Below are positions 11,492 to 15,635 of a DNA stretch of 29,835 nucleotides, one piece after another. The DNA comes from Candidatus Woesearchaeota archaeon (GTDB lineage: Archaea > Nanobdellota > Nanobdellia > Pacearchaeales > GW2011-AR1). The stretch's first letter is position 1; each line of letters opens with the position of its first letter. The notes beneath the pieces are model-generated. The model was not told the origin of the DNA, ran no database searches, and was given only the letters and a program-made list of their open reading frames with translations. The DNA lies in contig CAYGVK010000001.1 in the NCBI GenBank assembly GCA_964353375.1, positions 315 to 30,149 on the forward strand. The letters run 5' to 3'. Position numbers and translations under genes: made by a program.

Positions 11492-11992
11492 ATGCTCTTC
11501 AAAACACTTTTTCAAAAAATAGAATCATCAAAAGCATTTGAAAGATTCAAGCAGGATTATGAAAATGCAGAGCTTGTCATAGGTTATTTTGTTCTAGATT
11601 TTATAGGAATTGGCAACCAATTTCAATTAGATTACAAGACAGATAATAAAATATTTAGTTTTTCAATTGACATAAATAATCAAATTTCAATGAAACAAGA
11701 AGAGCTCATTCAAACAGAGACTAAACAAGAATTAAAATCAATCTCCCCTAATATTAATATTGATTTAAATAAACTTCAAGAAATTATAAAAAACAAACTA
11801 AGAGAAGAAAAAATAACTCAAGAACTTCAAAAAATAATAGCTATTTTGCAAATTTATAATAATGAACAAGCATGGAATACAACTTGCATTTTTGAAGGAT
11901 TAATAATAATTAATATAGTAATAAATTCTCAAACAGGAAAAATTATTAAATTTGAAAAAAAGAACTTAACAGATTTCATAAGGAAAGTTTAA
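11492..11992 (+). CDS. Hypothetical protein (C-terminal WNxT...IxINSxTGKII resembles PepSY-like strands)
   Basis: 166-aa ORF with an upstream TATA-like sequence. The fold suggestion is weak. Confidence 0.7.
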   Translation: MLFKTLFQKIESSKAFERFKQDYENAELVIGYFVLDFIGIGNQFQLDYKTDNKIFSFSIDINNQISMKQEELIQTETKQELKSISPNINIDLNKLQEIIKNKLREEKITQELQKIIAILQIYNNEQAWNTTCIFEGLIIINIVINSQTGKIIKFEKKNLTDFIRKV

Positions 11993-12600
11993 ACAATTAT
12001 AACATCCCAATCAATAATTCCTAGATTCCATCCATTCAAAAATCTTTCTTTTGATATTTTTCTATTTGGTTCAGCAGTTACAGGACCAGAATCATGAGCA
12101 TAAATATATTTTTTACCAATTCCTGTTAAAATAAGGTAATGCCCTTTCTTTCTATCCTCTTTTCCATCCATTTTCTCAATATTAATTAAACATATGGGGA
12201 TTTGTCCGGCCCTCAATAGATTTTGTAACTCTTGTAAAGACTGTCTATTCATACGAACAGTATATGCATTTCTATTTCTAATATCAAGAAAAGAAGATTG
12301 TATTGCATCGAAATCAAATGAATCTATTAATTCATTAGGATATACTTTTTTACTAAATCTTTCTAACTCTTCCCAAGAAAGCCTTTCAAAAACAGCTCGA
12401 ACTGGATAATAAAAATCAATTCCTAAAGTATCAAATGCGCTAGCTATCTGAACCAAAGTAATTGGGGTTCCTGGATTAACTCGCATTAATTCATCAATTT
12501 CATCAAGAGATTTTTCAATGCCCTTAAAGCTTAATACAGAACGTATTGATGTTTGAGCACACCGTCTACCCTCATTTAGATAAAAAGGGATCTGTAGCAT
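11989..12600 (-). CDS. C39-like cysteine peptidase (stand-alone, no transporter fusion)
   Basis: IPFY...RRCAQTSIRSVLSFKG (catalytic Cys), GHYLILTG (His) and YAHDS (Asp); starts 2 nt after the precursor stop. Confidence 0.8.
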   Translation of the reverse strand: MLQIPFYLNEGRRCAQTSIRSVLSFKGIEKSLDEIDELMRVNPGTPITLVQIASAFDTLGIDFYYPVRAVFERLSWEELERFSKKVYPNELIDSFDFDAIQSSFLDIRNRNAYTVRMNRQSLQELQNLLRAGQIPICLINIEKMDGKEDRKKGHYLILTGIGKKYIYAHDSGPVTAEPNRKISKERFLNGWNLGIIDWDVIIV

Positions 12601-12602
12601 TT

Positions 12603-12875
12603 TTAATGGCGTCTAGCATATGAATCATCATAGCAAGGGGGATCTTTAGTATCTTGATAACTATATGTTATTTCATCTCTATGGTTGCTCCCAGATCCAG
12701 AGTCGACATGTATTTCTGTGTGTCCATCAGAATATGGACTATCTCCATAATTAAATAAAAAAAAGTTTTGCCTATTTCTTATTGCCCTTTTTAAATGCGG
12801 ATTTTCTATATTCGCAAGCCTAATTTTATGTCCTAAAATTTCTATTTCTTCTTGTTCAAAATTGTGTTCTGTCAT
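12603..12875 (-). CDS. Putative RiPP precursor peptide with a leader and seven [Y/H]-x-[D/E] motifs
   Basis: 90 aa; the core contains YGD, YSD, HTE, HVD, HRD, YQD and YDD. The start overlaps the rSAM stop (ATGA). Confidence 0.75.
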   Translation of the reverse strand: MTEHNFEQEEIEILGHKIRLANIENPHLKRAIRNRQNFFLFNYGDSPYSDGHTEIHVDSGSGSNHRDEITYSYQDTKDPPCYDDSYARRH

Positions 12876-13988
12876 TTTGCTTCTGCTTCTGCTAATTCAC
12901 TATGCAAAAACTCCTCCACATGTTTAAATATTTTCTTATAAGCTACACAATATCCATCTTTTTTCATAACATCTCCAACCATTTCAAATGCATTATGCAT
13001 ACACCCACCATTACAAATTTTTCCGAAATCACAAGAACTACACCCTTGTATTGTTTCTAATCCTCTGTCTTTTAATCTACATTGAATCTCTGAATTTAAT
13101 GCATTTGCTAATCCTCCAACCCCATTCACATTTCCCATCTTAAATTCCGGAATTCCATCAAATCTACCACAAGGATAAATATCTCCTTGAGGACCAATAG
13201 AAACAAAACTGTTCCTACATGAAACAGAATAATTGCAACCAAATGGAATTCCAGTCATAAGATTCCCCATTATATCAGCAAAAGGATCTATATCTATTGA
13301 ATCATAATCATTAATCCATAAATCAAACAATTCGCACATCCCTTTACCATACTCTATAGGGGTTAATCCAAAACCATTTAAAACAGAAACTGTACATGGT
13401 ACAATAGGATTTACTTTTATATTTATCCTTTCCCTTTTAAAAAATTCATAAATCTCTCTAATTTGACCTATATTTCCTCTATTGAGAACAACTATTACTC
13501 CTCCACCTACATTTATTTTTCCATCCCTATCTGTTCTTCTTTTCTTTACAAGTTTTATACCTCTCATCACATCTTCAAATACGCCTCTCCCATCAGCATA
13601 TTTCCTCGTTTTATCATTTACCTCATTAGGGCCATCTAAACTTAATCCTAATCGAAAATCGTTTTCCTCTTCTATAAAATCTAATAATGCTTCTGTAACT
13701 AAAGTGCCATTGCTTTGTATACTATTACTAACAAAATAATCTCTTCCTCTTAATTTTCTAGATATAGTTGCAACCTCTCGATAGAAATCTACTCCCATTA
13801 ATAAGGGCTTCCCCCCCATGCCAAATAAAATGAACCTTTTTATCTTCTGAATTTTGAGCAACTTGCTCCATAGTATTTCTCAAAGTTTCTCTAGTCATTC
13901 TCCCCCTCTCAGCACTAGAAGGCACATAGCAATATACACAAGAAAGATTACAGTCATGTGTTGGTTTTACAATAGCTGTCAATGACAT
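12872..13988 (-). pseudogene. Radical SAM/SPASM peptide maturase (anSME-like architecture) split by one 1-nt frameshift; a sequencing error cannot be excluded
   Basis: Frame 1 (13988..) gives CNLSCVYC (CxxxCxxC) and WHGGE. Frame 2 continues PLLMGVDFY, QSNGTL, LGLSLDGP and the SPASM motif CNYSVSC...GDIYPC...CSSCDFGKICNGGC...C. The joined product is about 371 aa. Confidence 0.9.
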
Positions 13989-14009: not shown

Positions 14010-14025
14010 TATATAAATATTTCTA
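14010..14025 (-). promoter_or_regulatory. BRE/TATA-like promoter of the rSAM operon
   Basis: The minus strand reads tagaaatatttatata, with TTTATATA ending about 22 nt before ATG 13988 (leaderless spacing). Confidence 0.55.
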
Positions 14026-14072: not shown

Positions 14073-15635
14073 ATGGATGACGTATCTTTATTAATATCTA
14101 TCATAAATCCTAAATATAGTTCGCAACCTAATACTATAAAAAAATTATTAAAAGAAAAAGGATTTTCAGAGACATATAGAATTGCTGAAGAAAAAAATAT
14201 CAAACCAAATCCTCCAGTAGAGCATAAATTAGTTTATGATTCAGCTGTTCAGACATTAGAACCAATTTATTTTTGGATATTAGATTTTATGAATGATATG
14301 TTTGGAGGAGATGTTGAAAAACTTATAGATAATTTCACAAGCTCTCCTGGAAGCGGGCATTTTTCAGAATTGCAGGGGAAAGCTTCTCAAATGCAACAAG
14401 AAGCTTCAAGGGTTTTAGGAACAGTAAATAATATTTTAAAGGGTATTATCAATCTGATTTATGATTTAAAAGAATGGCAGATAATTTTAAGTCACTATGA
14501 CCAGGCAAATTCAAAAGACAAACAAAAAGCAGAGGCAGGAATTCTAGCTTTAAAACAAAGGTGGTTAGATAAAGTAGATATTCAAAGAGGACAAGGAAGC
14601 ATACATGCAATGACAACAGGACAATTAAATTTTGTAACTTTAAGAGATGCTTTTATGGCTGTAAAATCATTAAATGATGTTGATAAATTAGATTTAAATG
14701 AAAGAGTTAAAAGAATATTAAAACCAAGATTTCAGGAATTTTTAGAATGGAAAAAAAGAAGCGAACAGGAATTAAAAAAAAGATATGAAATTGAAAAAAG
14801 TTATTTAAAAAGTCAGGTAGAGGCTTTAAAATTAAACACAAAATGGGCAAAACCATATTTAAAAGCAGCTGCAAAATTAACTATGAATGAAAAATTAGAA
14901 AAAAATCCTGAATTTATCAATATATTTAACACAGTTCTTTTAGAATTAAGTATTATGGGAAAAAGAGCAGTTAATGTTGAACAAGAAGCAGTAAATAATC
15001 CAAGAGGCCTGCCTGAAAACTTTAAAAATATAGCAAAAAAATTAAGAAAATATTATGCAATTGTTTTAGTTGATTTTAATTTTAGAGGGATTCCAAGCAA
15101 AGTAGGACAGCATTATGCATTTGGAGGAAGAGCAGATGTAAGTTTTAAAGCATATGCATTAAATGAAGACGAACTTAAATTGCTTCATAAAAAATTAGAC
15201 AGTTCTGACATAGATGATTCTTTAAAATTAATTCAGGGAATGACAGATGAATCATTAGCACAGATAAAAGCAGATTTAGATGAATTTTTAGAAGATAAAC
15301 ATAAAGAACATAAAGAAGAAATTAAATCAGATGATACAAATCCATTTTCAGCATTGTTTAGCTTTTTAATAAAACCAAAAAAAGAAAAACCAAAATCAGC
15401 AGATGCTGAAAAACAAAAATTAGAGGAATTAGAAAAAAAAGGAATTAGAAAAGACAAATACGCAGAGCAATATGTAAGAAGCATAGCAGAATCAAATGCA
15501 GTAAATAATTGTTATAATGTCTTTGATATTTACAAAAAAGCACATGGTATGGCTTCATTGCCTTATATGCAGGAAAAAGAACCTACTCCGCCTGAAACTC
15601 AAGCAGAAAGATTATTCAGAATCCATAAGTTCTAA
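14073..15635 (+). CDS. Hypothetical protein, 520 aa, helical/coiled-coil-rich
   Basis: Long ORF with host-like codon usage; no catalytic motif recognised. Confidence 0.85.
   Translation: MDDVSLLISIINPKYSSQPNTIKKLLKEKGFSETYRIAEEKNIKPNPPVEHKLVYDSAVQTLEPIYFWILDFMNDMFGGDVEKLIDNFTSSPGSGHFSELQGKASQMQQEASRVLGTVNNILKGIINLIYDLKEWQIILSHYDQANSKDKQKAEAGILALKQRWLDKVDIQRGQGSIHAMTTGQLNFVTLRDAFMAVKSLNDVDKLDLNERVKRILKPRFQEFLEWKKRSEQELKKRYEIEKSYLKSQVEALKLNTKWAKPYLKAAAKLTMNEKLEKNPEFINIFNTVLLELSIMGKRAVNVEQEAVNNPRGLPENFKNIAKKLRKYYAIVLVDFNFRGIPSKVGQHYAFGGRADVSFKAYALNEDELKLLHKKLDSSDIDDSLKLIQGMTDESLAQIKADLDEFLEDKHKEHKEEIKSDDTNPFSALFSFLIKPKKEKPKSADAEKQKLEELEKKGIRKDKYAEQYVRSIAESNAVNNCYNVFDIYKKAHGMASLPYMQEKEPTPPETQAERLFRIHKF

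Follow-up and report, generated by a model that had tools for sequence, protein, structure and literature searches.

Triceptides carry links from an aromatic side chain to a Cβ atom, installed on aromatic-X-X motifs by enzymes of the radical S-adenosylmethionine (rSAM) type with a SPASM domain (PMC11499958). Several characterized enzymes act on Tyr or His. YxdB is described as forming a Tyr-C3 to Asp-Cβ link between residues i and i+2 (PMC11002830). HaaB joins His-C2 to Ala-Cβ in an HAA motif and YhhB joins His-C2 to Arg-Cβ in an HNR motif (PMC11002830; PMC11499958), and HtkB links His-C2 to Lys-Cβ on an HTK motif (PMC11499958). The dynobactin maturase also introduces two i/i+2 cross-links, a C–C link and a His N–C link to Tyr (PMC11002830). 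Here we analyze a gene cassette within a 29,835-nucleotide (nt) stretch of DNA, hereafter the window, from a Candidatus Woesearchaeota archaeon (GenBank assembly GCA_964353375.1, contig CAYGVK010000001.1, positions 315 to 30,149 of the forward strand). An initial interpretation of the letters alone (the sequence-only reading) had proposed that an rSAM/SPASM enzyme, a small precursor and a C39-like peptidase form a pathway to a multi-cyclophane RiPP (a peptide that is synthesized ribosomally and then modified post-translationally), on the premise that triceptide enzymes, including those for Tyr and His motifs, are established; YxdB, HaaB, YhhB and HtkB confirm that premise (PMC11002830; PMC11499958). 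The cassette belongs to a conserved, undescribed and mostly archaeal (DPANN) family, whose precursors are dense in [H/Y]-x-[D/E] triplets.

The three genes are co-oriented on the minus strand and tightly packed, as the sequence-only reading had described. The 90-amino-acid (aa) precursor spans 12875..12603, with its ATG at 12875–12873 and its stop codon at 12605–12603, and is translationally coupled to the rSAM gene through a 4-nt ATGA overlap with the rSAM stop. The ATG of the peptidase (12600–12598) follows the precursor stop after a gap of 2 nt. The features of the locus are as follows.

12872..13988, minus strand: rSAM/SPASM peptide maturase gene, ATG at 13988 and TGA at 12874–12872, about 371 aa if read through
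13805..13820, minus strand: frameshift site beside a G7 run; within the invariant WHGGEPLL, one extra base separates the Glu codon from the Pro codon
12750..12875, minus strand: precursor leader, residues 1–42, EIEILGHKIRLANIENPHLKRAIRNRQNFFLFN, with conserved Gly, Asn-Pro, Arg and F-x-F
12603..12749, minus strand: precursor core, residues 43–90, and stop codon, with seven [Y/H]-x-[D/E] triplets
11989..12600, minus strand: stand-alone papain-fold (clan CA) C39-like cysteine peptidase of 203 aa, assigned from Pfam, conserved residues, AlphaFold2 and Foldseek
14010..14017, minus strand: TATA-like octamer TTTATATA, 22–29 nt upstream of the rSAM ATG

The seven triplets of the window core are YGD, YSD, HTE, HVD, HRD, YQD and YDD. 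Shuffles of residues 43–90 contain 2.0 such motifs on average, and seven or more arose in about 1 of 10,000 shuffles (P ~1e-4). Pfam gave no match on the precursor open reading frame (ORF). A family profile was built from 14 precursors and searched against 1.84 billion representative proteins, which yielded 240 clusters (50% identity) at E ≤ 1e-3, 40 of them at E ≤ 1e-10, all with lengths of 56–167 aa. Across 150 representatives, the leader is conserved at G (97%), N (98%), P (84%), R (81%) and the two Phe residues of F-x-F (75% and 83%), and it ends in Y-G-D. Beyond the leader, 134 representative cores contain 1214 [H/Y]-x-[D/E] motifs versus 392 in composition-preserving shuffles (z = 56), an enrichment of about threefold. 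No other signal in the cores is as strong as the i/i+2 aromatic–acidic spacing: spacings 1, 3 and 4 are depleted, and spacing 5 is enriched because the triplets are tiled. Position 1 of a motif accounts for 73% of core His and 71% of core Tyr, while the middle residue varies: Thr and Ser predominate behind His, and Ser, Gly, Asp and Lys behind Tyr. Glu occupies position 3 in 376 of the 1214 motifs, and each precursor carries 2–18 motifs (median nine). The near-identical precursors of L004 and L095 (L numbers denote retrieved homologue loci) show one His-to-Tyr swap at a motif position 1. Positions 1 and 3 are thus the constrained ones, which is the substrate logic of i/i+2 cross-linking as in triceptides. 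The adjacent precursor with aromatic-X-X core motifs by which triceptide loci are recognized was found both in the window and family-wide.

The association between enzyme and precursor was then counted across homologous loci. The C-terminal fragment of the window rSAM matched 224 proteins, the best at 55–60% identity (55–62% over the homologues compared); their labels include Pacearchaeota, Nanoarchaeota and Aenigmarchaeota. Of the 13 loci, five had been fetched through the precursor itself, and the non-circular synteny count is that of the nine fetched through the enzyme (L001, L002, L004, L005, L006, L007, L008, L009 and L063). All nine have a small ORF directly downstream with the same leader, often overlapping the rSAM stop, and the cores of these ORFs are rich in His/Tyr and Asp/Glu. 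A peptidase homologue follows the precursor in 7 of the 13 loci. Hence, of the conserved rSAM–precursor–peptidase synteny anticipated by the sequence-only reading, the enzyme–precursor pair was borne out in full and the peptidase in part, being missing from about half of the loci. Two or three tandem precursor genes follow one maturase in L086 (1206–2253), L063 (506–1026), L096 (3977–4443) and L087 (1146–1728); these have similar leaders and strongly differing cores, the maximum being 19 aromatic-x-acidic triplets, in a precursor of 147 aa. In a Kiritimatiellae metagenome-assembled genome (MAG) of high G+C (L005, 5001–6393), an enzyme of 48% identity and a leader-bearing precursor, with no peptidase, are nested in the archaeal clade. 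This bacterial pair inside an archaeal clade therefore points to transfer between domains.

The family surfaced only through gene neighborhoods and the profile. In a word-based homology search, the precursor query matched only itself and the peptidase query matched one relative. A metagenome scan with the leader pattern returned five loci only, and a scan of a genome collection with rSAM patterns returned mostly distant bacterial enzymes, which were used as an outgroup only.

The window maturase has the domain architecture of triceptide enzymes. Pfam Radical_SAM was detected on both fragments into which its frame is split (1.4e-8 and 5.1e-10) and SPASM on the C-terminal fragment (5.6e-5), where TIGR04085 (SPASM) scored 55.8 bits against a cut-off of 27. 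CX3CX2C lies near the N terminus, eight invariant (SPASM) cysteines lie toward the C terminus, and the protein has no RiPP recognition element (RRE) domain. The window fragments and four intact homologues were then scored with NCBIfam models. The best was the dynobactin maturase DynA (NF041298), with 66.3 + 221.6 bits for the fragments and 280–310 bits for the intact homologues, below the cut-off of 450. The sulfatase maturase model TIGR03942 came second (window, 182 + 45 bits; intact homologues, 225–242; cut-off, 349), and TIGR04083, for methanogen peptide-modifying rSAMs, gave 155 bits for the window fragment and 177–197 for the intact homologues (cut-off, 300); neither cut-off was reached. 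Intact homologues scored 88–98 bits with XyeB (cut-off, 450), 111–132 with GrrM/OscB (310), 98–112 with FxsB (370) and 105–117 with AmcB (425), and the YhhB model gave 115–157 bits (intact homologues, 136–157; cut-off, 445). All named cyclophane synthases thus fell far short of their cut-offs, and the enzyme ranks below the threshold of every curated maturase family.

Phylogenetic analysis placed the enzymes more sharply. In a tree of 102 rSAMs (quick IQ-TREE run, with support by the Shimodaira–Hasegawa-like approximate likelihood ratio test, SH-aLRT), the window rSAM falls within a 26-row clade with SH-aLRT 98. All loci with a leader-bearing precursor are in this clade, as are 13 metagenome proteins that lack context, and every locus in it with readable context has an adjoining [H/Y]x[D/E] precursor. 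Its neighbors include bacterial rSAMs beside small ORFs rich in Tyr/Trp-x-Asp/Glu triplets. On the opposite side of the tree is a 16-row Bacteroidota clade, in which all three members readable by motif scan have YPCD, as does anSMEcpe. The Asp of YPCD, following the auxiliary-cluster Cys, is the proposed catalytic base of anSMEcpe. Where sulfatase maturases read YPCD, the 26-row clade, including the window copy, reads YPC-G-R-FDG (window equivalent, 13150–13175). The Arg of this motif is a candidate reader of the substrate carboxylate. The rSAMs of the family are thus united in one supported clade, to which true sulfatase maturases do not belong. A sulfatase gene (PF00884) was not found in the host genome (0.60 Mb), and its absence is not proven because the assembly is 79% complete. 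The clade, the Gly-Arg replacement and the lack of a detected PF00884 gene agree that the enzyme does not cluster with sulfatase or cofactor maturases devoid of such peptides. Together with the conserved family and the i/i+2 motif signal, the clade also supports the view of the locus as a genuine enzyme–substrate–peptidase cassette.

Other observations concern the wider rSAM relatives. Gly-Arg in place of the YPCD Asp also occurs in several relatives beside aromatic-x-acidic ORFs. In six Bacteroidales gut MAGs (L014, L015, L019, L022, L023 and L025), rSAMs at 30–36% identity have small ORFs about 0–900 base pairs (bp) upstream with Trp/Tyr-x-Asp/Glu-rich tails, for example ...YDDYNDCHGDYYDAE. 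These are probably Tyr-x-Asp triceptide loci and could be a bacterial sister group. A Spirochaetia MAG (L011, 4965–6377) encodes a 470-aa rSAM/SPASM protein with a tail that includes the leader-like FDKIENPAIKRLL and a Tyr/Trp-x-Asp/Glu-rich end. The leader profile matches this tail weakly (E = 0.29) and the enzyme lies outside the clade; the protein may be a natural maturase–substrate fusion.

The third gene encodes a papain-like enzyme. Three Pfam models matched it just above their cut-offs: PF13529 (Peptidase_C39_2; 26.3 versus 24), PF03412 (Peptidase_C39; 22.8 versus 22) and PF11814 (DUF3335; 27.6 versus 25). Cys14, His154, Asp170 and Asn9, the last six residues before the Cys, are conserved, and Cys14 and His154 are invariant. 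The AlphaFold2 model has a predicted local distance difference test (pLDDT) score of 92.5, and Foldseek returned papain-like matches at template modeling (TM)-scores of 0.5–0.58: the pseudomurein endoisopeptidase PeiR (the top match), the peptidase domains of ComA and PCAT1, a C39-like Bacillus protein (3erv) and phytochelatin-synthase-like enzymes. Of the features of C39 peptidases, the papain-like fold with Cys and His is present, whereas neither a Gly-Gly (or Gly-Ala/Ser) site nor fusion or pairing with an ATP-binding cassette (ABC) exporter was found. The 150 aligned precursors have no conserved Gly-Gly, and their junction consensus is F-L-F-N-Y-G-D-H; no transporter gene lies within or adjoining the operon. 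The removal of the leader by a C39 peptidase, as put forward by the sequence-only reading, thus retains a papain-like Cys/His enzyme beside the precursor but is an analogy, because the protein is a stand-alone clan CA enzyme and the precursors have no conserved double-glycine site. On that footing, a leader peptidase role appears reasonable. In the close relative L002 (5468–5911), the peptidase slot holds a Ser-rich protein of 147 aa that has a coiled coil at its C terminus and no Pfam match.

From these data, we propose that the peptide is probably stapled into many small rings in a triceptide-like manner, the nature and position of the bonds being modeled on characterized triceptides. The 90-aa peptide would be the substrate, and its leader, E-I-L-G-H-x-I-x-L-x-x-I-x-N-P-x-L-R-R-A-I ... 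F-L-F-N-Y-G-D, would dock on the RRE-less rSAM/SPASM enzyme. After reductively cleaving SAM, the enzyme would take a hydrogen from the side chain of the acidic residue that closes each [His/Tyr]-x-[Asp/Glu] triplet (position 3), with Cβ as the likeliest site. A bond would then form between this carbon and the position-1 aromatic ring, in the way that triceptides are joined at Tyr-C3 or His-C2. With each triplet turned into a three-residue cyclophane, the mass would change by −2 Da per motif, and the window peptide would gain up to seven rings. The co-transcribed stand-alone Cys–His peptidase would then trim the product, probably near the conserved FLFNYGD junction.

Several points weigh against this proposal. 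The chemistry comes from analogy, and the literature searched contained no characterized precedent for Glu at position 3 or for His-x-Asp. The rSAM lies below the cut-offs of all curated cyclophane-synthase families, and by sequence it is nearer to a sulfatase maturase than to a triceptide synthase, the nearest solved structures being anSMEcpe (4k37; 229 bits), CteB and, among triceptide synthases, ChlB (9gm3; 131 bits). The role of the peptidase is uncertain because the double-glycine junction is missing and the gene is absent from about half of the loci. Finally, the maturase is frameshifted in this genome, so the product may not be made here.

Part of this evidence can be accommodated by a different bond within the same cassette. 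A C–O ether occurs in darobactin, and PqqE forms a Cγ link on Glu/Tyr. A His-N C–N bond, a Tyr C–O ether or a Glu Cγ link, instead of a bond from ring carbon to Cβ, would fit the ranking of DynA as the best curated model, given that the dynobactin maturase makes both C–C and His N–C links at i/i+2 (PMC11002830), and would also fit the frequency of Glu at position 3, for which the literature searched offers no triceptide precedent. The scores, however, fall well below the DynA cut-off, C3–Cβ is the only chemistry characterized for the Tyr-x-Asp type (PMC11002830), and the free interchange of His and Tyr at position 1 suits a ring-carbon attack common to both. We consider such a bond unlikely. 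A more distant explanation makes the rSAM either an anaerobic sulfatase-maturating enzyme or a maturase for a cofactor (of the pyrroloquinoline quinone, mycofactocin or haem type), and the small ORF an unrelated acidic protein. The second rank of TIGR03942 (182–242 bits) and the position of anSMEcpe as the nearest solved structure speak for it. This explanation is nevertheless very improbable, in view of the TIGR03942 scores below cut-off, the replacement of the YPCD Asp by Gly-Arg in the clade and the failure to find a sulfatase gene in the 79% complete genome. The small ORF is, moreover, translationally coupled and beside the enzyme in all nine independently fetched loci, and 2–18 motifs in up to three tandem genes are unsuited to the precursor of a single cofactor.

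The triceptide-like proposal concerns the family; whether the window copy still operates turns on the frameshift. Two frames make up the rSAM gene, an N-terminal one of 76 aa (13988..13758) and a C-terminal one of 329 aa (13861..12872). At the junction, the minus strand reads CAT GGG GGG GAA G CCC, where all 19 aligned homologues read WHGGEPLL. The DNA of L086 is identical at this site minus the extra G, and nine further homologues are in frame. The maturase frameshift noted by the sequence-only reading is thus one extra base (+1). A simple difference in G7 run length does not account for it, because with one G fewer in the run another residue would stand in place of the conserved Glu. Programmed +1 frameshifting was considered and rejected: the shift occurs in no homologue, and the ten checked at the DNA level are all in frame. 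The broken frame therefore means that the cassette here is either freshly inactivated or mis-assembled at that base, and a true pseudogene and an assembly error are about equally probable. That the cassette in this genome is a decaying relic, with the maturase a true pseudogene and the precursor and peptidase no longer used, has in our estimate slightly less than an even chance. The extra base sits in the essential GGE motif and, not being a simple homopolymer length change, is not typical of sequencing error. Among 120 further genomes of this family, none yielded a close rSAM orthologue (best, 344 bits versus at least 500 for true orthologues), the precursor occurs in 6 of 400 genomes of a phylum sample, and this rarity suggests frequent loss. 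On the other hand, every family-invariant residue is kept in the window rSAM, including CX3CX2C and the eight SPASM cysteines; its terminal branch (0.28) resembles those of intact neighbors (0.26–0.40); and the frames of the precursor and the peptidase are intact. The site also adjoins a G7 run that is one of only 13 G/C runs of at least 7 in the genome, and assembly and polishing errors concentrate at long G/C runs. The frameshift makes this genome a possible snapshot of cassette loss.

The host genome is archaeal, as it encodes ribosomal protein S8e, and the S8e search matched only the four archaeal control genomes. No rRNA was detected in the assembly. It measures 0.60 Mb, is 79% complete and has a G+C content of about 27%; the small size and low G+C of this archaeal assembly therefore fit a DPANN-type lineage. 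The assignment to a reduced-genome, DPANN-type archaeon made by the sequence-only reading agrees with these data. The cassette has a G+C content of 32–33%, slightly higher than that of its flanks (26–27%). DPANN archaea have minimal genomes and are host-dependent, and a dedicated, conserved peptide-modification cassette is therefore unexpected in them. It may act at the symbiont–host interface. If the triceptide-like proposal is true, triceptide-type chemistry extends to Archaea, to His-x-Asp/Glu motifs and to far more rings per peptide, and the approximately 240 diverse precursors are a natural set for the study of cyclophane-synthase substrate specificity. A bolder version, which we regard as possible but rather doubtful, is that these are the first dedicated RiPP class of DPANN symbionts: hyper-cross-linked peptides of 7–18 rings with undescribed His-to-Asp and His/Tyr-to-Glu bonds, made by enzymes in which Gly-Arg would read the carboxylate, and acting as His/Asp/Glu/Tyr-rich extracellular metal-binding or host-interaction factors.

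Upstream of the cassette, the rSAM start and a divergent gene of 520 codons lie 84 bp apart. The single TATA-like promoter invoked by the sequence-only reading held up as to position only: the octamer lies at a plausible distance, but TTTATATA is not enriched in the AT-rich window (10 found versus 9.2 expected; 27% G+C). Because its occurrence matches chance expectation, the octamer is no evidence by itself, and the TATA box was dropped as an argument. From position alone, it could be the promoter of a leaderless operon transcript. The product of the divergent gene (window 14073–15635, plus strand) is a coiled-coil protein of 520 aa; neither Pfam nor PHROG gave a match, and its AlphaFold2 model (pLDDT 56) was too poor for structure search. 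This gene was considered as a fourth cassette component and rejected, because 38 of 40 family genomes have it as a core gene and the cassette, which is rare, is missing from nearly all of them. The cassette lies on the 5′ side of this gene in five divergent genomes, in either orientation. Relatives of the 520-aa gene are found at these positions.

L001, 6138–7784: relative of the 520-aa gene
L004, 6252–7904: relative of the 520-aa gene
L002, 2436–3971: relative of the 520-aa gene
L007, 3241–4911: relative of the 520-aa gene

Two other window genes were noted. One (8432–9157, minus strand) encodes a 241-aa protein with a strong Cell Wall Hydrolase domain (SleB-like, PF07486; 7.4e-22). Such a protein is odd for this archaeon, which makes no peptidoglycan, and it may be aimed at bacteria; the sequence-only reading had pointed it out too. 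The 832-aa product of the other (3707–6205, plus strand) contains a von Willebrand factor A domain and may act at the cell surface or in adhesion.

No description of the family came up when the full-text literature was searched for archaeal triceptides and for rSAMs of RiPP pathways in DPANN, although an unpublished or unindexed report is possible; within the same limits, these searches agree with the statement of the sequence-only reading that no RiPP system is characterized in this lineage. The C39 peptidases (ComA and PCAT1 domains; LahT-type) resemble the cassette peptidase in papain-like fold, Cys and His, Asn/Gln six residues before the Cys and a RiPP precursor as neighbor; the cassette enzyme differs in being stand-alone without an ABC transporter, in TM-scores of only 0.5–0.58 with PeiR as the top fold match, and in the lack of Gly-Gly in the precursor. 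Among the rSAMs, anSMEcpe (PDB 4k36–4k39; TIGR03942) has the same architecture, length and eight auxiliary-cluster cysteines. The family departs from it in having Gly-Arg for Asp, in a clade separate from the YPCD Bacteroidota enzymes, in scores below cut-off and in a genome where no sulfatase was found. The dynobactin maturase (NF041298) is the best-scoring curated family, at 288 bits summed over the window fragments, but its precursor has a single short Trp/His/Tyr core and its host is proteobacterial, in contrast to the acidic repeat of this family.

Among triceptide enzymes, HaaB, YhhB and HtkB likewise represent the SPASM rSAM class on His motifs, and Thr is often the middle residue here, as in HTK. 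Their position 3 is Ala, Arg or Lys, whereas it is acidic in this family, and they are bacterial with one to three motifs per precursor. The YxD-type triceptides of YxdA/YxdB were reportedly described by Sugiyama et al. in JACS in 2022. By motif type alone, the cassette is like YxdA/YxdB in combining an rSAM/SPASM enzyme without an RRE and a precursor in which Tyr-x-Asp triplets recur; the bacterial rSAMs nearest to the clade also stand beside Tyr/Trp-x-Asp/Glu-rich small ORFs. Unlike YxdA/YxdB, this family has His as frequently as Tyr at position 1, Glu commonly at position 3, nine motifs per precursor at the median and a conserved leader of its own, and it is mostly archaeal (DPANN), often with a stand-alone C39-like peptidase. 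In architecture and motif logic, the family thus matches the triceptide class, and it departs from that class in domain of life, in its His-x-Asp/Glu motifs, in motif number, in its leader and in forming a clade outside every curated family.

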